A DNA stretch of 64,000 bases, from NCBI GenBank assembly GCA_965247985.1, contig OZ252051.1, forward strand, positions 3,973,045 through 4,037,044, in the 5' to 3' direction. This DNA comes from an uncultured Candidatus Binatia bacterium. GTDB taxonomy: Bacteria > Desulfobacterota > Binatia > Bin18. How positions within the stretch are numbered: the first letter of the stretch is position 1; each line of letters starts with the position of its first letter. Both the position numbers and the translations under genes were made by a program. Below are positions 39,434 through 53,072 of this stretch, in pieces. The notes under the pieces were generated by a model. It searched no databases, was not told the origin of the DNA, and saw only the letters and a list, made by a program, of their open reading frames with translations.

Positions 39434-40999
39434 TCACACCGTCTCATATTCTCCCTCAAGCAGTCTGCGACGCAATAATTTGCCCGTCGGACTCTTGGGT
39501 AAGCCGGGCACAAACTCATAGCGCCGCGGACGTTTGAAGTCGGCAAAGTCCTCGGCCTGACGACAGAAGGCGTCCAGGTCTTCCGCACGCAGCGCAACAA
39601 GACTCCCGTCAGCCCCCCGTTTGGGAATAACAAAGGCAGTGACCACCTGTCCCCAGCGCTGGTCCGGTAGACCGACGACACAAGCTTCATCAACCCCAGG
39701 GTGACGAGAGACAACCTCCTCAACCTCAAGCGGATAAATATTCTCCCCACCGCTAATGACCATATCATCCACCCGACCAACGGTGAAAATATCTCCGTCT
39801 TCGTCCTCGTACACGAGATCGCCGCTAAAATACCAGCCGCCACGCAGCGCTTTGGCATCCGCCTCGGGCCGCCGCCAATAGCCCTGAAACGCTTCGGGCG
39901 AGGAGAGACTGACAATCAGCTCGCCGGTTTCCCCCCGAGACAGAACGGCGTCCGGGTCACCCTGTCTTTCGGAATCAGCCCGCACGATGCGGATCCGGCT
40001 AAAGATACCGGCTCGGCCGGCACAGGTCGGTTTCTCCAATATACGATCACAGATCGTGAATGTATAAATTTCGGTACTCCCGAGATGATTGACAAAAACC
40101 CGAGGCTGGAAAATATCCGCAACCTGTTGCGTGAGTGTCCCGGACATGGGCGCTCCGGCGTAACCCAGCTTGGTGACGCTCGCCATTGCCGTCCGCGTGC
40201 AATCCGGCACATTGACCAGATCGTGATACAGCGTCGGAACGAGATAGAGCGACGTGACCTGCTCGTTCGCAATCAGATTCACGGCTGTCTCCGGGCTCCA
40301 GTCCGGCAGGCAGATCAAGCAACCGTTCAGTAAGGCCATGACAAGCATCGAGCGGACACCCATCGTATGGTAGAGCGGCATGACTCCGAGGGTGCGATCT
40401 CGAATGCTGTTCTGGCTTTGCAGGCTATGGGCGAGGGCCGCACTATACTCGGCCCGATGCGTGCGCGGCACTCCTTTGGGCCGACCGGTTGTGCCGGACG
40501 TATACAGCATAATGCTGCTGTCCGCTTCGGAAACCTCAGCTGGCGATGCCCTGCCGGTCCCTTCGTCCTCTAACAGAGCGGAAAAAGAAAGACAGTCTGC
40601 CGGGGGATTGTCTCCAACGTAGATCCAGGTATGAACGGTTGACAGTGAGGGCCGCGCCGCCTGGACCGCCGCGTGACTTGCCTGTTCAAATATGACCGCA
40701 ACCGCTTCCGCGTCCTGGACACAAAATGCGATATCCCCGGCTGACCAGCGCCAGTTAAGCGGCGTCGCAATGGCGCCGATCCGCTGACACGCCCAGTACG
40801 CGGTGGCATGTTCGAGCCGGTTTTTCAGCAAAAACACAACATGGTCACCGCGGGTAATACCACGCCGGTGTAAGGCCTGCGCCACCCGGCTGATACGAGT
40901 CTGCCAGGCGCGGTAGGTCAGACGCCGGTCTCCATCAATAATAGCCTCTGCCTCGGGATACCGAGCGGCGGCCATATCGATGACGCTGGCGATATTCAT
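39434..40999 (-). CDS. AMP-dependent acyl-CoA synthetase/ligase
   Basis: Start MNIASVID. Its ATG overlaps the upstream TGA (ATGA). Motifs MLYTSGTTGRPKGV, YHTMG, GELIV, SGDL.Y.DEDG and ISGGENIYP.EVE. Confidence 0.9.
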   Translation of the reverse strand: MNIASVIDMAAARYPEAEAIIDGDRRLTYRAWQTRISRVAQALHRRGITRGDHVVFLLKNRLEHATAYWACQRIGAIATPLNWRWSAGDIAFCVQDAEAVAVIFEQASHAAVQAARPSLSTVHTWIYVGDNPPADCLSFSALLEDEGTGRASPAEVSEADSSIMLYTSGTTGRPKGVPRTHRAEYSAALAHSLQSQNSIRDRTLGVMPLYHTMGVRSMLVMALLNGCLICLPDWSPETAVNLIANEQVTSLYLVPTLYHDLVNVPDCTRTAMASVTKLGYAGAPMSGTLTQQVADIFQPRVFVNHLGSTEIYTFTICDRILEKPTCAGRAGIFSRIRIVRADSERQGDPDAVLSRGETGELIVSLSSPEAFQGYWRRPEADAKALRGGWYFSGDLVYEDEDGDIFTVGRVDDMVISGGENIYPLEVEEVVSRHPGVDEACVVGLPDQRWGQVVTAFVIPKRGADGSLVALRAEDLDAFCRQAEDFADFKRPRRYEFVPGLPKSPTGKLLRRRLLEGEYETV

Positions 41000-43437
41000 G
41001 CAGGGCTTCCTTTCATACTCGCCTCCAACTGCTGCCACAGCTTGTTTGGGGTCAGGGGCAACTCGGTAATTTCAATACCAAGATGGCGGACGGCATCGGC
41101 CACCGCATTGGCAATGGCAATCGGCGCAGTCTGGGCGGTGCTTTCCCCGATGCCCTTGGCTCCGGTTAAGGACTGGGGAGTCGGCAGCACAATATGGTCC
41201 ATCACCACGTTGTCCGGCATTTCGTTCAGCGTCGGACACAGATAGTCCATCAACGTTCCGGTCAGAAAATCACCCGTCTCGGTGTAACGCAGCTCCTCGT
41301 ACAGAGCACCGGCAAGGCCGTGTAAGAGACCGCCGGCGAACTGTCCTCGGGCTATCTGTGGGTGCAGGATATTCCCGGCGTCGTGCACAGTAATGTAGTC
41401 GGTCACGCGGATATCGAGCGTCTCTGTATCGATCTCAACAACGGCAACATCCGCAGTGAAAGCATAGACCGCAGAAGAGTTCACCTGATCGTACTCGTTC
41501 GGATAGTCGAGATCACGGGCAATAAACGTTCCTTCAACGTTACAGGCGGTCTCCAACTTCGGCGGCAGCGTTCCGGTTGACCAGTGCAGACGCGCCGCGA
41601 CGTCTTTCAGGCTCAGGCCGAGCTGGGTGTTATCGAGCGCAACAATGCGGCCTTCCCGGACGCTGAGTCGATGCGCTTCAACATCCAGGAAGTAGGCAGC
41701 CGCCTGGATAAGATTGTCTTGCAACTGCTTGGTAGCAGCGACAATTGAACTTGCCCCGACCGCGCCAAAACGACTGGAATAGCTGCCTGAAGAAACCGAC
41801 CACGGTCTGGAGCCGGTATCCATCCCGGCGATGACAGTCACGTCTGCTGGCGCAATGCCCAAGGCTTGGGCGACAATAAAAGCGGCAGTCGTTTCCTGTC
41901 CCTGTCCGTGGGCCGCTGTCTCCAACTCAACCGTGACGCCGCCCGTCGCGTCCAAGTAGATACGTGTCGTCTGAGCCGAGCCGACTCGGACTAGGTTTGG
42001 GCGTCGCTGCGCGGCTTTCTTACTCACGTCTATATAGCCCATATTCGAGCCCGAGGGATCTATTGCAACGGCGATGCCAACCCCGCGCCACACCCTGGCA
42101 TCACTCGGACCTGAAGTACCCCCTGAAGTGCCGGTGGATTGCCGTAGCTTCCAGTAATCACTCAGTTCCAGCGCGCGCTGCGTGGCACGGGGATAATCCC
42201 CGGAGTCGTACAGTCCGCCCGTCACCGTGCGGTAGGGGATATCGTGTGGCTGGATGAGGTTTTGCAACCTGACCTCGGCTGGGTCTTTACCAATCTTCAG
42301 GGCGATTTCGTCAATCGCGCGCTCAATCGGGAAATAGTGCTGTTGGCAGGCATAGCCACGATTCGGGCCGCTGGGACAGACATTCGTCATGACCGCCAGG
42401 GCGTTGACCTGAAGATGCTCGATCTTGTAGGCGTTCATGAAATTGCCGACTGGACGGAACAAACAGCCAGGTTCCGGCGCACGAATATAGGCCCCCACAT
42501 TGTCCATGAGGCGCATTTTGAGACCGAGCAGTTGGCCATCATTGCGTGCCGCGACCTCAAGTTCCGTCACCCGGTCCGTTCCGGTCGAGCTTGCGCTGAG
42601 CGACTCCAGGCGGTCTTCGATCCACTTGACCGGACGGCCGGCTTTCCGAGAAGCAAGCGCCATTAAGGCCATATAGGGATACAGGGCGATCTTATTCCCG
42701 AATGAACCACCGACATCCGGTGGCGTTACTACGCGCAGCTTGCTGAGGGGAACACGGAGCGCCCCAGCCAAAACTGCCAGCATGCTATACGGCCCGTGAA
42801 AGTTGGCCCAAAAACTGACCTGTGACGAGGACGGATTCCAACTGGCGATAATCCCATAGGTTTCGAGTGGAAAGGACTGATAGCGGGGAAAAACATAGCG
42901 CTGCGAGAACACCATATCCGCAGTGCTGAAGACCGCTTCCACATCGCCGTAGGTGAGCTGACGATCGATGGCGACATTGGTTGCAAGCTCCTCATGCAGG
43001 ATGGGGGCCGAGGGCTGCATGGCGGCCTCAACATCAACCACGGCAGGCAGTGGCTCATACTCCACTTCGATTTTATCCCGGGCGTCTTCAGCAATATATC
43101 GGTCGGCGGCAACCACCACCGCGACCGGCTCGCCAACATAGCGTACTTTTTCGATAGCGCAGGAATAGTATCGTCCCGGACGTTCGGCAGCCACCGCAAA
43201 CGGCCGACTCCACCCTTGGATTTCACGCCCGGTCAGCACAGTGATGACGCCCGGAAGCGCCAGCGCAGCGCTGGGATCAATGTCTATAATACGCGCATGC
43301 GCATACGGGCTTCTCACCACCGCGGCATGGGCGAGATTGGGCAGCGGGTTGAGGTCGGCAATATACTGGGCCTGAAGATCAAAGAGCCGCCGGCCTTCGG
43401 TTGAGGGCGGCGGCGCGGTGGTTGGATGCTGAGACAT
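40996..43437 (-). CDS. Molybdopterin-dependent hydroxylase large subunit (xanthine dehydrogenase / aldehyde oxidase family)
   Basis: 813 aa. Contains Ald_Xan_dh_C and C2 regions, and the C-terminal catalytic Glu context GAKGIGESTAQTAPIAIANAV. The active-site loop reads GPNRGYACQQ. It is neither the VAYRCSFR loop (form I CODH) nor AYRGAGR. Confidence 0.9.
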   Translation of the reverse strand: MSQHPTTAPPPSTEGRRLFDLQAQYIADLNPLPNLAHAAVVRSPYAHARIIDIDPSAALALPGVITVLTGREIQGWSRPFAVAAERPGRYYSCAIEKVRYVGEPVAVVVAADRYIAEDARDKIEVEYEPLPAVVDVEAAMQPSAPILHEELATNVAIDRQLTYGDVEAVFSTADMVFSQRYVFPRYQSFPLETYGIIASWNPSSSQVSFWANFHGPYSMLAVLAGALRVPLSKLRVVTPPDVGGSFGNKIALYPYMALMALASRKAGRPVKWIEDRLESLSASSTGTDRVTELEVAARNDGQLLGLKMRLMDNVGAYIRAPEPGCLFRPVGNFMNAYKIEHLQVNALAVMTNVCPSGPNRGYACQQHYFPIERAIDEIALKIGKDPAEVRLQNLIQPHDIPYRTVTGGLYDSGDYPRATQRALELSDYWKLRQSTGTSGGTSGPSDARVWRGVGIAVAIDPSGSNMGYIDVSKKAAQRRPNLVRVGSAQTTRIYLDATGGVTVELETAAHGQGQETTAAFIVAQALGIAPADVTVIAGMDTGSRPWSVSSGSYSSRFGAVGASSIVAATKQLQDNLIQAAAYFLDVEAHRLSVREGRIVALDNTQLGLSLKDVAARLHWSTGTLPPKLETACNVEGTFIARDLDYPNEYDQVNSSAVYAFTADVAVVEIDTETLDIRVTDYITVHDAGNILHPQIARGQFAGGLLHGLAGALYEELRYTETGDFLTGTLMDYLCPTLNEMPDNVVMDHIVLPTPQSLTGAKGIGESTAQTAPIAIANAVADAVRHLGIEITELPLTPNKLWQQLEASMKGSPA

Positions 43438-43485
43438 AATGCTAAGAAAGACGCTGTTGGACTATCACGCAGGGGTTGAATCCGT

Positions 43486-43968
43486 TCACTTTCTTTGATC
43501 CCGCAAGCGCTTGGCTGCCTCCACAATACTCACATAGCCGGTGCAGCGACATATATGCCCCCCCAGCGTCTCTTGAATATCCCGGTCCGTAATCGGCTCT
43601 GGCGCGGTCTCCAGGAGATGACACAGACTAAGGGCGAAACCGGCAGTGCAAAAGCCGCACTGCATAGCAAAGTGCTCAACAAAAGCCTGCCCGACCGTTT
43701 TTCCGAGGTCGGTTTGCATGATCCCTTCAAGCGTGGTGATCGCATGTCCTGCCGCTTGCGGGGCCAAACGCAAACATGAACGAACGGGCAATCCATCAAC
43801 CAGCACCGTACAGGCACCGCACACCCCCTGCTCACACCCCAGATGTACGCTGGTGCAGCCGGCCTCTTCGCGCAGAAAGTCGGCCAGCGTTTTGCGAACG
43901 TCAACCAGCGTTTCAACTGGCGTTCCGTTGACGGCGGTCGTGACAATGATGCGGCGTTGAGGCTGCAC
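43486..43968 (-). CDS. (2Fe-2S)-binding small subunit
   Basis: GTG start 5 nt after AGGAGA, overlapping the upstream TAG by 1 nt. Motifs CEQGVCGACTV and CGFCTAG...NICRCTGY-type (HICRCTGY). Confidence 0.9.
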   Translation of the reverse strand: MQPQRRIIVTTAVNGTPVETLVDVRKTLADFLREEAGCTSVHLGCEQGVCGACTVLVDGLPVRSCLRLAPQAAGHAITTLEGIMQTDLGKTVGQAFVEHFAMQCGFCTAGFALSLCHLLETAPEPITDRDIQETLGGHICRCTGYVSIVEAAKRLRDQRK

Positions 43969-44864
43969 TATGCTCTCCTGACCGTGTTCTCTCGGCCTTC
44001 CTTCCCTTTCCACATAGCAACAGCATCCAGGTAGGCGCGCTTGACCATCACCCGAGCGAGATGCTTCCGATACTCGGCAGAGGCATGCAGATCAGTGTGA
44101 CAATCGAGTCCTGCGACAGCCGACGCCGCAACCGCCTCGGCCTGACCGTCAGACAATACCTGCTGTGTCAGCACGGCTTCAGCCTGGGGGACCCGCAGAG
44201 GGCGATCCTCCACGCCAAACAGGACGACACGTCCATGCGCACAACGGTCCTCACCCATCTCGGCCAGCACGATCGCCCCGGCCAGGGCAAAATCCCCCGC
44301 CCGTCGGGTGTACTCCCGCACCCCCCACACCACGTTCTTGCGGATGGGGATACGGACTTCGGTCAGCAGTTCGTCAGGCCGGATATCCGCGCTCAGGGGA
44401 CCCTGAAAAAAATCAACCGCCTGAATACAGCGTGCTCCGGACGGTCCGACAACGAGCAGCTCTGCGTTTAAGGCGCAAATTGCCGCCGGCAGTTCCGCGG
44501 CCGGGTCGGCATGGGCCAGACTCCCCCCAATTGTTCCCGCATACCGAATAGGCGGATGGCCGATCAGGCGCGTGACCGCAGCCAACACGGGCACGGTGCG
44601 CTGAATACGAGCGTCCCGTTCAAGCCTGTATTGCCGGGTGAGAGCGCCAATATGCAGGCGCTCAGCCTCTTGACGGATGTAGCTCAACTCGTCCAAGCCG
44701 TTGATGTCCACAACCACGCCGGGAGTTGTCAGTCGCATATTGAGGAGCGGCATAAGACTCTGGCCCCCAGCGAGAATCTTCGCCTCGTCGCCATACTGAC
44801 CAAGGACGGCCAGCGTCTGTTCGATTGATTTCGGAGCAATATACTCAAAGGGGGCAGGCTTCAT
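43968..44864 (-). CDS. FAD-binding subunit (CoxM/XdhB-like)
   Basis: Start MKPAPFEYIAPKS after GAGGGAGAA. Motifs ILAGGQSLMPLLNMR and AGTIGGSLAHADPAAE. There is no Cys-rich 4Fe-4S insertion. Confidence 0.9.
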   Translation of the reverse strand: MKPAPFEYIAPKSIEQTLAVLGQYGDEAKILAGGQSLMPLLNMRLTTPGVVVDINGLDELSYIRQEAERLHIGALTRQYRLERDARIQRTVPVLAAVTRLIGHPPIRYAGTIGGSLAHADPAAELPAAICALNAELLVVGPSGARCIQAVDFFQGPLSADIRPDELLTEVRIPIRKNVVWGVREYTRRAGDFALAGAIVLAEMGEDRCAHGRVVLFGVEDRPLRVPQAEAVLTQQVLSDGQAEAVAASAVAGLDCHTDLHASAEYRKHLARVMVKRAYLDAVAMWKGKEGRENTVRRA

Positions 44865-45021
44865 TTCTCCCTCTTCGACCTCGCGCCGGACTATACTATG
44901 GATGGAATAGCCAGTCCAGTTTTCCAGCCCCCTGCGTTTCTCCAGTTGACGCACCCCCGGACAATCCATATTGATGGGCCGAAGAGTCTAGGATCACTTT
45001 TTTTCCGAAAGGAGTATGTGT

Positions 45022-45696
45022 ATGAGCGGTCAAGAAGCAGGGCTCAACAACGAGCTCAAGCAACAAATCGTAGCCTTCCAAAAGGAAATGCTGCCAAAGA
45101 TTCCACCGGAGATTCGTGAGGTACTGGTCCGCACGACCGAAGATCAAGTCAAATCCGGCATCACGGCCAAGGCCCTGAAAGTCGGAGACAAAGCCCCTGA
45201 CTTCACCCTGCCCAACGTGCGTGGAGAGGCGGTGACGCTTTCAAACCTCCTGGCCAAAGGACCGGCCGTCATTGCCTTTTATCGAGGCGCGTGGTGACCG
45301 TACTGCAACCTGCAGTTGCAGGCTTACCAAAAACGCTTGGCTGAGATGCAGGCGCAAGGCGCGTCCTTGATCGCCATCTCTCCCCAGACCCCGGATAATT
45401 CGTTGACTGTTGCAGAAAAGAATGAGCTTCAATTTGAGGTTCTCAGCGACGCCGGCAACGCCGTCGCCCGACAGTTCGGGCTGGCGTTTCGATTTGTTGA
45501 TGAGTTGCAGGAGACCTTTGAAAAAATGGGTATTCAACTGCCCACATACAATGGCGATGAGGCTTGGGAACTACCGATACCCGGCACCTATGTCATTGAC
45601 CAGGACGGCACCATTACGCTGGCCTATGTGGATGCAAACTATACCACCCGGCTTGAGCCAGGTGATATTCTTGACAGTCTGCAAGGGCTGAATTAA
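45022..45696 (+). CDS. Predicted selenoprotein: PRX_like2 / AhpC-TSA family thiol-disulfide oxidoreductase with Sec (UGA 45295-45297) in a W-U-P-Y-C motif
   Basis: Track ORFs 45016-45297 and 45316-45696 share one frame, separated only by TGA plus 6 codons. The joined sequence reads ...PAVIAFYRGAW-U-PYCNLQLQAYQKRL...LIAISPQ. The family normally has FYRG.WCPYCN there. A hairpin follows the UGA. Confidence 0.7.
45300..45327 (+). promoter_or_regulatory. Candidate bacterial SECIS stem-loop
   Basis: ctgcaac-ctgca-gttgcag (45303-45321), extendable by gta/tac. The loop lies 13-17 nt after the UGA and contains G. Confidence 0.5.
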
Positions 45697-45714
45697 ACGG
45701 ACGCAGGCTATTAT

Positions 45715-45738
45715 GCGGGGAGCGCTCTTGCTCCCCGC
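45715..45738 (+). terminator. 9-bp GC-rich stem-loop after the redoxin gene
   Basis: gcggggagc-gctctt-gctccccgc, 19 nt after TAA. No clear U-tract. Confidence 0.4.
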
Positions 45739-45856
45739 GAGTCATTATCCACCGTGGCACAGTCTCAATAAGAAATGGGCAATATCGCTTGTTTCCCTTG
45801 CTCTCTCTTTTCTGAAAAGTTAGTCTGAATTTTAGTCTATTGAAAGGAGAAATGAG

Positions 45857-46123
45857 ATGCCACGCAATCTTCCTTTATCTGAGGCAAAAGCGAAACTAAG
45901 CCAGATCATCGCAGATGTAGAGAGTACAGAAGAAGAAATTACCATCACCCGGAACGGGCGTCCTGCCGCTGTACTGATGAGTGCGGATGAATTCGCGAGT
46001 TGGCAAGAAACAAGAGCAATTCGTCAGGATCCCGAATTGATGCGAGAAATTAAACGTGGACTTCGGCAACTCCAGAAAGGACAACGATTCACTTTTGAAG
46101 ATATCTTTGGGGAGCCGCTCTGA
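45857..46123 (+). CDS. Phd/YefM family antitoxin
   Basis: LSEAKAKLSQIIADVESTEEEITITRNGRPAAVLMSADEFASWQET. Confidence 0.9.
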   Translation: MPRNLPLSEAKAKLSQIIADVESTEEEITITRNGRPAAVLMSADEFASWQETRAIRQDPELMREIKRGLRQLQKGQRFTFEDIFGEPL

Positions 46124-46132
46124 AGGAAGAGT

Positions 46133-46453
46133 ATGGCGAAAACGCCCCGGTATCGTATAGAAACCGCGAAAGCTGTCCGAGATGCAATCATTCACCTCCC
46201 CCCACATCTCAAACGAAGAGTGAAAGCAGCCTTTCGAGCTATCGCGGGCAATCCGCACCAGGCAAGGCCTCTCAAAGATGAATTGATATGGCTCCGAAGT
46301 TATCGGGTCGGCAGGAACCGGCTTGTCCTGCGTATCAAAGGCTCCGTCATCGAAATTATTGCCTTCGGTCCCCGGAGTAATATCTACGAACGCGCCGCTG
46401 CTGAACTCAGCATCTCATTGCGTGCCAAAGACGAAAACGACGAGAAAGGGTGA
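46133..46453 (+). CDS. RelE/ParE family toxin
   Basis: 106 aa, 10 nt downstream of the antitoxin. LKDELIWLRSYRVGRNRLVLRIKGSVIEIIAFGPRSNIY. Confidence 0.8.
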   Translation: MAKTPRYRIETAKAVRDAIIHLPPHLKRRVKAAFRAIAGNPHQARPLKDELIWLRSYRVGRNRLVLRIKGSVIEIIAFGPRSNIYERAAAELSISLRAKDENDEKG

Positions 46454-50230: not shown

Positions 50231-50782
50231 TCAACCGTGCGCGACACGCTGAAGAGGCGGTCCGTCCAATTCAAGCTGGACCGCAATTTCGGCCAGCGCC
50301 TCTTCGGCGCGGCCACGAAAATCCTCAGGCTTTTCCCCGGCCTTGATGTGCGGAATGACCACGATGGGAATATCCGGCATGGCCATGGCTTTGGCTTGAT
50401 CCTGGGCCGCAACGAGAAAGGTATCAAAAGTCACGGCAACGGCTCGCACCCCCCGCTTCCACAGTTTTGCTGAGTCGAGCATACAGCCCGACGTACACGA
50501 CCCTCACGCGCACAGGCCGACAACGGCCTGCTGCGACGCTGCGGCGACCTCGTTAATCAACTGCTCGGGCGAAGGACGGGTAAACATCGGCTTGCGCCAG
50601 ATCGACACCTTACTCACGGCCGGCTTCGCCTCCAGGAGTTCCTTGAGTCGTTCAAAAAACATCCCGGCGATCTCATTGCCAAAGCCATTGTTCACCAATC
50701 CGATGACACGGCCTGCAGCGTTCCTATCGATTTTCTTTTCGGCAAATTGTCGTCGGACTCCGACGGGGCTGAGTACCCGCAT
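50231..50782 (-). CDS. Predicted selenoprotein of the UGSC family (Sec at UGA 50504-50506)
   Basis: Track ORFs 50504-50845 and 50231-50482 are in one frame. The joined sequence reads ...QQAVVGLCA-U-GSCTSGCMLDSAKLW...IPIVVIPH. Start MRVLSPVG (50782) lies 6 nt after GAGGT and 8 nt after the upstream stop. Confidence 0.7.
50474..50501 (-). promoter_or_regulatory. Candidate SECIS stem-loop downstream of the UGSC UGA
   Basis: On the minus strand: GUCGUGUACGUCGGGCUGUAUGCUCGAC. The outer stem is GUCG/CGAC, continued by GUA/UGC-type pairs, with a G-rich apical region. It starts 3 nt after the UGA. Folded by eye only. Confidence 0.35.
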
Positions 50783-50790
50783 ATGGCACC

Positions 50791-51843
50791 TCACTGACTG
50801 TGTTGAATTTCCTTGGTCACGGCAAATCCACCCAGTCCACCCCAACCTGGACAGATCGCCGCGAAATACGTTTCTCCTCCAGCCACCACAATGTGAATGT
50901 TACGGGGCCGCTCGGTGATGGGCACCCGGTAGTCGTCATTATCCTTCTCCACCCAACTCGGCCAAAACTGGTCTGATATCCCAAGGGCGTCCACTGCTCG
51001 AATGTCCCCCAGCCGGGCCCGGGCGTGCTCCCACAGGTAGACCCGAATCTCAGGCTTGGACCAGCCTTCACGCTGAAACTGGCGCGCCTGCCAGGGATTC
51101 AGCACAACCAGGGTTTCACCCATGGCTTGGACATTATTACTGCCCAAGCCGCTGAGCGAGCTAACCAGTGAGGCCAGCATCTGTGCGACCGTGCCGTAGC
51201 ATAACACCGAGTGAGGGGCCTCACAGCTAAACACGGTCACGGCATTTTTACCGGCTTCGATCCCACGCTCAACGTGCAGCGGTTCCCACGGATTCGACTC
51301 TTCCTTTTCTGCAATACAAAAGCTCCACTTGCCGGGGTGGGCCTGGGTGGACTTATCTACCTCACCGGGGATATTGCCGCCCAGATTCCAGAGGAGCAGA
51401 CGGATGGCACGGCCAACAGTCCCGTTGGCCCGGAAGCCGTTACCAAACACACCGTCGCTGGCATTGAACTTGAGTTCTGTAGCAATCGGACCGTTGACGA
51501 TGGTCAGCGGCACACAACTATGGGTGGTGGTCTGCACGCCGTTGAGATTGTGTTCCGGCTCCAGCATGGCCTCGACCGCAGCGATAATAATCGGAAAGTA
51601 TTCAGGCCGACAGCCGGCCATGACACTGTTGACCGCCAGTTTTTCAATAGTGGCAATGCCTTGAGCCGGCGGAATCTCGCCCAACTCTTCTTGCGGGTCA
51701 CGCCCGGAGGCTTTGATCGTTGCCTCGACCAGTTCTTCAGTCGGCGGCACGATAGCCAAGCCATCGGTCCAGCCGCGCTCAAAGAACAACTCGACCGCGG
51801 CGTGGTAGTCTTCAACGTCAATCGGTTCGGATGTGAACTGCAT
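50791..51843 (-). CDS. Conserved-looking hypothetical protein (350 aa), first gene of the UGSC operon
   Basis: Globular, with no TM segment or signal peptide. Clean ORF with Cys-containing segments (MAGCRPEYFP, THSCVPL, FSCEAPHSVLCYG, FAAICPGWGG). I recognise no family. Confidence 0.6.
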   Translation of the reverse strand: MQFTSEPIDVEDYHAAVELFFERGWTDGLAIVPPTEELVEATIKASGRDPQEELGEIPPAQGIATIEKLAVNSVMAGCRPEYFPIIIAAVEAMLEPEHNLNGVQTTTHSCVPLTIVNGPIATELKFNASDGVFGNGFRANGTVGRAIRLLLWNLGGNIPGEVDKSTQAHPGKWSFCIAEKEESNPWEPLHVERGIEAGKNAVTVFSCEAPHSVLCYGTVAQMLASLVSSLSGLGSNNVQAMGETLVVLNPWQARQFQREGWSKPEIRVYLWEHARARLGDIRAVDALGISDQFWPSWVEKDNDDYRVPITERPRNIHIVVAGGETYFAAICPGWGGLGGFAVTKEIQHSQ

Positions 51844-51939
51844 ATCCCCTCCGGCCAGTCTTCTGATGTCTACACAGCCGGAAGGGACAGCGTCAAGGGT
51901 TTACCTCGCCTGCCGCGCGCCTCAAGACCTTGAGAGCAA

Positions 51940-52275
51940 TCACGCCGCCAGCATTTTCTCGTTGCAGGTATAGATCGTGACATCGGGAATGCGGGCGAAA
52001 TCCGTATCTGTGGTCGCAATGATGGAGACCTCATGGTCCTGCATAATAGACCAATGATAGGCGTCCCGAGGCAGTAAGAGGTGACGGTCCACTGTTTTGA
52101 GGGCCGTCTCATATGAACCTGCTTCTGTTTCGATAAAGGAGATATGCGGTAACTGCTCAAGCCTTTTTGTAAACGCTCGCAACTTCCGCAATATTGGTTT
52201 GAAACGGTCAGGCTCTTCTCGATACACTTCCCAAAAAGTTTTCGGAGCATGAAGCTGTTCGGTTTCGAGCTTCAA
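51940..52275 (-). CDS. PIN-domain-like protein (possible VapC toxin, atypical N-terminus)
   Basis: C-terminal pattern RDAYHWSIMQDHEVSIIATTDTDFARIPDV resembles PIN. The usual N-terminal D(T/S)N motif is absent. TTG start overlaps the upstream stop. Confidence 0.45.
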   Translation of the reverse strand: MKLETEQLHAPKTFWEVYREEPDRFKPILRKLRAFTKRLEQLPHISFIETEAGSYETALKTVDRHLLLPRDAYHWSIMQDHEVSIIATTDTDFARIPDVTIYTCNEKMLAA

Positions 52276-52439: not shown

Positions 52440-52734
52440 AACAGGAATGCACGGAAAAGAGGCTTTACTCATGTCGATGCTCTTATTGGCAGGGGTATAT
52501 ATCTCTGCGTTGCCGCATACTCGCAAATCCGCAGGGGCTCCCGTGTGGTACACAATCGACACAAATTCGCGATCAAGGTGGCGAGGGTGTATGAGGTATA
52601 GCGAGGGGTATCATAAGTTCCTGGAAAAATTGACCTTTTCCGCTTGCCCGTATGATATGGAAACACGTTACAGCCAAAACTGGATAAGAAGAGAGAATCT
52701 TTCCTTTGTCAAGTGGTGCCATATGTGTTACTAA

Positions 52735-53001
52735 TTGCCCGTGGCCGAAGTCCGAGAATATCTTACCGACCGAGGGCAGAGCCCGTATGCAAATTGGTTT
52801 TATCGACTCAATGCCCCAGCGGCGGCCAAGGTCGCAGTAGCCTTGACTCGTATAGAACAGAGCAATTTCTCGAATGTCAAAGGGGTTGGTGGGGGCATCT
52901 TTGAATACAAGATTGACTTTGGACCTGGCTACCGAGTGTATTTCGGTAAGGACGGAGAGACGCTGGTTATTCTGCTCGGTGGAGGAACGAAGAAACAATA
53001 A
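52735..53001 (+). CDS. Addiction-module killer protein (RelE/ParE superfamily, HigB-like), truncated by an in-frame TAA
   Basis: EYKIDFGPGYRVYFGKDGETLVILLGGGTKKQ, then TAA (52999-53001). The same frame continues as QKDIVTAKSLWQDYKRRKRLES to a TAG at 53068-53070, 2 nt before the antidote ATG. Confidence 0.7.
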   Translation: MPVAEVREYLTDRGQSPYANWFYRLNAPAAAKVAVALTRIEQSNFSNVKGVGGGIFEYKIDFGPGYRVYFGKDGETLVILLGGGTKKQ

Positions 53002-53072
53002 CAAAAGGACATCGTGACAGCAAAATCCCTTTGGCAAGACTACAAACGAAGAAAAAGGCTGGAGAGCTAGCT

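Follow-up and report, generated by a model that had tools for sequence, protein, structure and literature searches.

A predicted Prx-like selenoprotein with a W-U-P-Y-C active site in an uncultured Binatia-like bacterium

The question raised by this locus is whether a TGA codon that separates two open reading frames ends a gene or is decoded as part of it. In the 64,000-nucleotide (64-kb) stretch of DNA analysed here, which we call the window, two forward-strand ORFs (45016-45297 and 45316-45696) lie in a common frame that is interrupted only by the TGA at 45295-45297. Re-translation matches exactly both the shared frame and the read-through peptide quoted in the original prediction, which runs ...PAVIAFYRGAW, the TGA codon and then PYCNLQLQAYQKRLAEMQAQGASLIAISPQ..., and with selenocysteine (Sec, U) written at the UGA the joined translation reads ...GPAVIAFYRGAW-U-PYCNLQLQAYQ.... 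The peptide that contains this residue, Sec92, is GAW-U-PYCNLQLQAYQK in the joined frame. Between 45022 and 45696 (+ strand), the 224-codon frame holds this one in-frame TGA and ends with the stop TAA at 45694-45696. Translation probably starts at the ATG at 45022, since this codon stands 7 nt from a Shine-Dalgarno-like AGGAG read from the sequence at 45010-45014 (+), as opposed to only 1 nt for the ATG at 45016; in the orthologue L001, a GGAG precedes the ATG at a similar spacing. Judging from the translation, Pfam, the homologues and dN/dS, we consider it highly probable (roughly 0.9) that 45022-45696 (+) holds an intact gene whose product is a selenoprotein of 224 residues, a Prx-like thiol:disulfide oxidoreductase with the motif W-U-P-Y-C. 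A scan of 44700-45900 for promoters and terminators gave nothing useful. Beginning 19 nt past the stop, a perfect 9-bp G+C-rich inverted repeat (GCGGGGAGC-GCTCTT-GCTCCCCGC, 45715-45738, +) may form a hairpin at the transcript end; it is followed by no T-tract and was for that reason left uncalled by the terminator scan.

Pfam places the joined protein in AhpC-TSA (PF00578; E = 8.4e-34, 116.6 bits, cut-off 26) and also matches it to Redoxin (E = 3e-22), and a search of a large protein collection returns 7529 homologues. The alignments show hardly any variation in the motif F-Y-R-G-x-W-C-P-Y-C-N, and the TGA (45295-45297, +) falls on its first Cys, the N-terminal, thioredoxin-type nucleophilic site of the CxxC. 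The second redox residue, Cys95, is encoded by the TGC at 45304-45306 (+), is invariant in the alignments and occupies the peroxidatic Cys position of peroxiredoxins in the phmmer alignment to Bcp (PDB 2cx3). The original prediction held that the UGA stands in place of the first Cys of the CxxC and proposed a homology search with the joined 224-residue protein, and inspection of the aligned column bears this out. The residue is Cys in 25 of the 26 aligned database homologues, and a protein-based scan that yielded 60 metagenome homologues with a recognisable motif gives 51 with Cys (TGC or TGT), 8 with TGA and a single exception to Cys or TGA, which has Gly (GGC). The Cys homologues, named 'peroxiredoxin-like family protein' at NCBI and which we take to be PRX_like2/cd02970, resemble the window protein in sequence (50-65% identity), in length, which is equal, and in the motif FYRGxW-C-PYCN. 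They differ from it in having TGC or TGT rather than TGA and in being without a positioned hairpin after this codon, where their synonymous sites vary.

The 26th database homologue, P0001, is the closest protein match (76% identity) and was deposited with W at this column. Its annotation would favour a UGA read as a standard amino acid, namely Trp, Cys or Gly, through a reassigned code or near-cognate suppression, a reading that we consider very unlikely. The DNA behind P0001 (L001) has TGA at the codon, and the printed W is thus a choice made by the gene caller, which applied code 4 (Mycoplasma-type) to a 980-bp contig. A genuine Trp codon is seen in none of the 60 metagenome homologues at this column, which is moreover that of a redox Cys, the classical site of exchange between Sec and Cys. 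In the window itself, TGA terminates 21 of the 49 large ORFs, which argues for the standard genetic code and excludes a reassigned one.

If the UGA is instead decoded as Sec, the gene has a ready place among described selenoproteins. That Prx-like proteins are a known bacterial selenoprotein class was part of the original prediction, and membership of this class is shown directly by an alignment with the Prx-like selenoprotein of Geobacter metallireducens, which covers 224/224 residues without gaps at 47% identity (E = 3e-81) and has Sec at residue 92 in both proteins. The Desulfotalea, G. metallireducens and Rubrobacter xylanophilus sequences in supplementary file 4 of an earlier survey all carry W-U-P-Y-C, and the same survey counted Prx-like in the sequenced genomes of Geobacter, Desulfotalea and Syntrophus (PMC1794560). 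The Sargasso Sea study reported 'Prx-like' selenoproteins in which a thioredoxin-like UxxC replaces TxxU (PMC1088965). In the GOS data there are 225 copies of 'Prx-like 1', a pfam00578/UxxC entry (PMC2398784) that fits best and is probably the family of the window protein. Under the name 'Prx-like' (Zhang et al. 2005/2006), the family is recorded with pfam00578, the motifs UxxC/UxxU and the exemplar WP_010940744.1, and reviews grade it as 'predicted with high confidence', without experimental Se incorporation (PMC13188914). With this published family the window protein shares its fold family, W-U-P-Y-C and an occurrence in Sec-using lineages (Desulfobacterota, Geobacter, Rubrobacter, Acidobacteria); only the host differs, and the window's clade has an invariant SECIS core of its own (see below). 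Because the family has been described since 2004-2006, we regard the gene as an ordinary one. A literature search on Binatota together with selenocysteine found nothing related.

We scanned species-representative genomes, with one genome standing for each species, for DNA that matches Y-R-G-x-W-TGA-P-Y-C-N. In at least 119 genome loci the TGA is flanked by open frames, and the joined protein can be aligned with that of the window. Of the matches listed, about 88 align over nearly the full length, with 33-92% identity, and the remainder over the redoxin core only; L067 is the only chance match among the 120 matches listed. The TGA is also kept in 9 metagenome contigs, and the metagenome scan supplies 8 orthologues with TGA. 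The hosts among the matches listed include Desulfobacterota (with the cultured Desulfoluna, Desulfosediminicola and Malonomonas), Geobacteraceae, Acidobacteriota, Methylomirabilota/Rokubacteria, Dormibacterota, Rubrobacter and Chloroflexota, which are typical Sec users. The nearest among the matches listed, at 90-92% identity, all have TGA: the MAGs L055, L118 and L106, labelled Candidatus Binatia, 'Thermodesulfobacteriota' and 'Entotheonella', respectively, and the metagenome contig L122.

Purifying selection continues past the UGA. In comparisons that range from 92% to 62% identity, the 120 codons that follow the TGA show a dN/dS of 0.05-0.16, which matches that of the 80 codons before it, and the range for both sides together is 0.05-0.17. 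This bears on whether the TGA could be a real stop, leaving either a pseudogene or a 91-residue fragment followed by a separate 126-residue fragment that starts at the TTG at 45316. Mechanical ORF calling does yield two ORFs, and no Sec machinery is seen in the window: in scans of approximately 40 of its ORFs, Pfam and NCBIfam identify no selA, selB or selD, no tRNA-Sec was found, ARAGORN finds no tRNA and Rfam gives no match. A real stop is nevertheless highly improbable, as it would split the CxxC active site and would have to be reconciled with the low dN/dS beyond the TGA, with an RNA hairpin and a synonymous constraint that are specific to the Sec forms (see below), and with an identical TGA at the same column of no fewer than 128 independent assemblies, which come from many phyla and in which both halves are always open. 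A TGA that recurs unchanged in about 128 independent assemblies cannot be put down to a pseudogene or a sequencing error. An error of sequencing or assembly that turned TGC or TGT into TGA in the window would need only a single-base change; we give it a negligible probability, given that the TGA is present in the closest relatives (L055, L106, L118 and L122) as well as in more distant ones and that the SECIS core is there too.

We turn to the RNA that would direct Sec insertion. A perfect hairpin, ctgcaac-ctgca-gttgcag, had been placed 6 nt after the UGA, and it does lie at 45303-45321 (+), starting at the 6th nucleotide, with 5 nt in between. This candidate SECIS element, H1, has a 7-bp stem (CUGCAAC/GUUGCAG) and the loop CUGCA at +16 to +20 counted from the U of the UGA, and it is put forward on the basis of folding and conservation. 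A second candidate, H2, overlaps it at 45309-45322 (+) and consists of a 5-bp stem (CCUGC/GCAGG) with the 4-nt loop A-G-U-U (G21, U22); it appears in the minimum free energy (MFE) fold and in several orthologues. Taken alone, the hairpin of the window is only suggestive. Perfect 7-bp hairpins number 52 on the + strand of the 64-kb window, which corresponds to a chance of about 2% that one starts in a given 25-nt stretch. The fold of 45298-45330 reaches -9.7 kcal/mol (z = -1.68), a value matched by 11 of 200 shuffles, and folds of longer stretches are unremarkable (z = -0.4; under synonymous-codon randomisation, z = -1.0 and p = 0.155).

The SECIS of E. coli fdhF has its loop at about +22, with GU in the loop. 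Like that element, the candidate hairpin lies directly 3' of the UGA and has a small apical loop with a G, or with GU in the case of H2. It differs in that its loop lies 2-6 nt nearer the UGA by the fdhF numbering, with H1 starting its loop at +16, and in that two overlapping registers are possible. A hairpin directly 3' of the UGA with a small, G-containing loop is a feature used in the prediction of bacterial SECIS elements (PMC1088965). Within the window, the hairpin of a second Sec-type gene, of the UGSC family (7-bp stem, loop UGUAU, with G23 and U24), is similar to the N-G-U-N loop of H2.

What makes the case for the hairpin convincing is comparative evidence rather than the fold of a single sequence. 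The comparison covered the 45 nt downstream of the codon in 126 distinct Sec sequences and 50 Cys sequences, with tests that treat related sequences as independent. The median MFE is -12.75 kcal/mol in the Sec forms versus -8.9 kcal/mol in the Cys forms at a G+C content of 0.563 and 0.552, respectively (p = 3e-14, phylogeny ignored), and when synonymous codons are randomised such that the peptide is kept, the median z is -1.37 versus -0.12 (p = 2e-12, phylogeny ignored). By the same randomisation, 35% of the Sec forms and 4% of the Cys forms individually reach p <= 0.05. Perfect hairpins of -6 kcal/mol or lower occur in 70% of the Sec forms (88 sequences), where the loop starts between +16 and +28 in 84 of the 88 and is mostly G-first (GGA, GGU, GGC, GUCUU and others); in the Cys forms they occur in 22%, at scattered positions.

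The same contrast is seen at the level of individual codons. In the window's clade, all 16 Sec sequences that encode N-L-Q-L use AAC CUG CAG UUG, while the flanking synonymous sites (in Pro, Tyr, Cys, Ala and Tyr codons) vary freely in these sequences. Where the Sec forms are fixed, the 9 Cys forms with N-(L/I)-Q-L use CTT, CTA, CTC, CTG, ATT or ATC, and then CTG, TTG, CTT or CTC. The RNA structure and the synonymous-site constraint are thus specific to the Sec forms, and the SECIS-like hairpin of the original prediction holds up as a feature that is enriched and positioned only in them.

Within clade A, a 13-nt core, AACCUGCAGUUGC, is invariant in 18 Sec sequences, which are labelled Binatia, Gaiellaceae, Methylomirabilota and 'Deltaproteobacteria'. 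The few substitutions within the hairpin (C12 to U, A26 to G) leave both registers paired through G.U, and one sequence, L169, weakens both H1 and H2. Compensatory covariation is not found within the window's clade, where the only changes are from C-G to U.G and from U-A to U.G, and because the hairpin core is invariant, H1 and H2 are inseparable by covariation. A more speculative idea, which we hold to be improbable, is that the SECIS of this clade is atypical, with the invariant core and two registers (CUGCA at +16 and AGUU at +20) nearer the UGA than in fdhF. If this were so, SelB could read sequence in addition to shape, and the Sec allele could have spread together with its SECIS as a cassette through horizontal transfer.

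What chemistry would such a protein perform? A phmmer search against PDB sequences gives BCP/PrxQ first (2cx3, 5e-15), and the alignment to 2cx3 pairs FYRGAW-C-PY-C-NLQL, shown with Cys at the Sec column, with FFPAAF-S-PV-C-TKEL. By this alignment, Sec92 takes the place of the Thr/Ser and Arg88 that of the Pro in the PxxxT/SxxC signature of peroxiredoxins (Prx), which is thus not kept, while Cys95 corresponds to the peroxidatic Cys. As a proxy for the structure, we used the AlphaFold model of P0002, a Cys homologue with 65% identity, which has a Prx/Trx fold (pLDDT 88.4, pTM 0.87). In this model, helices at residues 12-50 precede the fold, the CxxC opens a helix at 95-104 and there is an internal helical insertion; its best fold matches in the PDB are BCP/PrxQ (TM 0.80-0.85, target-normalised), AhpE and ResA. 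Compared with BCP/PrxQ (PDB 2cx3, 5epf, 3hjp), the window protein is alike in its overall fold and in keeping the peroxidatic Cys position as Cys95, and it differs by some 50 residues of helical extension at the N terminus and by the internal helical insertion.

Family models also give low scores. The NCBIfam peroxiredoxin models stay below their cut-offs (NF006960, 66 against 140 bits; TIGR03137, 16 against 272), as do the selenoprotein models for PrxU (NF040737, 31.4 against 270 bits), a SelL-related family (NF040769, 42.7 against 120) and the WAxxUGC family (NF041054, 24.6 bits against 300). PrxU is also a selenoprotein of the AhpC/TSA fold, with its Sec at the peroxidatic position (TxxU), whereas the Sec of the window protein lies three residues earlier (UxxC). 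Given the position of Sec92 at the Prx Thr/Ser site, the replacement of the motif Pro by Arg88 and the sub-threshold Prx models, thioredoxin-like chemistry appears most likely. The label 'AhpC/TSA-type' of the original prediction stands as a Pfam assignment and is not to be equated with peroxiredoxin, since the Sec aligns with the Prx Thr/Ser and it is Cys95 that matches the peroxidatic Cys.

The protein may still be a true peroxidase, in which Sec92, or Cys95 aided by Sec92, would reduce hydroperoxides in the manner of Prx or GPx, with the decoding of Sec unaffected. BCP/PrxQ as the best match in both sequence and structure, Cys95 at the peroxidatic position and the names given to the homologues by NCBI and JGI ('peroxiredoxin' or 'peroxiredoxin-like') all point in this direction, and selenolates react fast with peroxides. 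We nonetheless find a peroxidase unlikely, though deserving of some weight. The Prx signature is lost at Arg88 and Sec92 in the Bcp alignment, and the NCBIfam peroxiredoxin equivalogs all fall far short of their cut-offs. A nearly invariant Pro187 would furthermore occupy the position of the catalytic Arg, which is expected before the T-[FY]-x-I-D strand (R-x-T-F-x-I-D in BCP); this placement is by motif alone, as the PDB sequence alignments end before the region. Finally, the motif described in the literature is the thioredoxin-like UxxC, not TxxU (PMC1088965).

On the preferred reading as a thioredoxin-like oxidoreductase, the UGA at 45295-45297 would be decoded during translation by the established bacterial Sec pathway instead of acting as a stop; Sec insertion at the UGA, like SelB binding, the hairpin register and the substrate, is something that we infer. 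The predicted protein would have a Prx/Trx fold with its helical N-terminal extension and the active site W-U92-P-Y-C95, in which Sec92 would be the exposed nucleophile of a thioredoxin-like CxxC and its selenolate would attack a substrate disulfide or an oxidant. An internal selenenylsulfide between U92 and C95 would then form as the oxidised state, to be recycled by a cellular reductant.

The gene has as neighbours an FAD-subunit gene and a divergently transcribed operon for a molybdenum enzyme of the xanthine dehydrogenase family. The gene order of the window is shared by L055, L118 and L122, the three closest relatives only, and because it holds only there, this synteny provides no evidence of a functional link to the operon; we rejected such a link as an explanation and retain it as a weaker possibility.

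A further gene in the neighbourhood raises the same question of UGA decoding. The original prediction named a second Sec-type gene of the UGSC family 5 kb away, and we find it on the reverse strand at 50231-50782, with TGA at 50504-50506, the motif CA-U-GSC and the 7-bp hairpin with loop UGUAU noted above. Its match to NF041046 (E = 4e-26, 91.8 bits) lies under the 125-bit cut-off. As a selenoprotein family, UGSC (NF041046) is no less familiar than Prx-like (PMC2398784; PMC13188914). A scan of the window for UxxC and CxxU motifs gives no Sec candidates beyond the Prx-like and UGSC genes, which together make two selenoprotein genes in 6 kb. The presence of the UGSC gene, with a hairpin of its own, also hints indirectly that the genome encodes the Sec machinery.

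For annotation, the value of the locus lies in the fact that standard gene callers split, truncate or mistranslate such genes, as with the W printed at the Sec position of P0001. The comparison of about 126 Sec with 50 Cys sequences offers a clean and reusable demonstration that constraint at the RNA level follows the UGA allele. Our knowledge of selenoproteins is unchanged by the finding, as the family was predicted about two decades ago and what is new is its Binatia-like host. For that organism, the Prx-like gene marks an uncultured, Binatia-like bacterium as a probable user of selenocysteine.

The selenoprotein gene (45022-45696, + strand) lies divergent from three genes for the FAD, 2Fe-2S and MoCo subunits of a molybdenum hydroxylase in the xanthine dehydrogenase/CO dehydrogenase family (40996-44969, - strand), with predicted starts only ~52 nt apart. 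This arrangement is kept in two of the genome loci, L055 and L118, and in the metagenome contig L122, but not in more distant loci carrying the Sec form. We found no evidence for a functional or selenium-cofactor link between the hydroxylase set and the selenoprotein gene. On the other side, a perfect 9-bp G+C-rich inverted repeat with a 6-nt loop (GCGGGGAGC / GCTCCCCGC; 45715-45738, + strand) begins 19 nt past the selenoprotein stop codon and is not followed by a T-run. Between the selenoprotein gene and the gene for a PLP-dependent enzyme lies a pair encoding a Phd/YefM antitoxin and a ParE-like toxin (45857-46453, + strand), which is also carried by L122 at 95-99% identity. In L118, the pair is missing from that site and the PLP gene comes directly next, and thus, the pair looks like a small mobile insertion.

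The second selenoprotein-type gene in the window belongs to the UGSC family (50231-50782, - strand) and has its TGA at 50504-50506 within the motif CA-U-GSC. Its match to NCBIfam NF041046 (E = 4e-26) scores 91.8 bits, below the 125-bit cut-off. A 7-bp hairpin occupies positions +15 to +33 past the UGA, and in its UGUAU loop, G23 and U24 take positions like those in the SECIS hairpin of E. coli fdhF. Upstream are three consecutive ORFs of 350, 126 and 154 aa (50791-51843, 51870-52250 and 52573-53037, all - strand), none of which had a match in Pfam or NCBIfam at the thresholds used; the stop of the first is separated from the UGSC-gene start by 8 nt.

Three MAGs (L055, L106 and L118) carry orthologues 90-92% identical to the selenoprotein, with near-identical synteny, while their labels diverge strongly: Candidatus Binatia, Candidatus Entotheonella sp. 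and Thermodesulfobacteriota bacterium. Probably no more than one of the three labels is both correct and up to date.

Two homologues are recorded with unusual residues at the Sec column. The metagenome homologue L128 (Ga0210385_10015195) has the motif W-G-P-Y-C-N, with GGC (Gly) where all others have Cys or Sec. This Gly could reflect a single-base error (TGC to GGC) or a naturally occurring variant that is either inactive or of the 1-Cys type. The 76%-identical orthologue P0001 has Trp at this column in its public record, whereas the underlying DNA (L001 107-781, JGI contig Ga0589498_10528062) reads TGA. Evidently, the gene caller applied a TGA=Trp code to this short contig, and selenoprotein orthologues can therefore sit unseen in protein databases as "W" variants.
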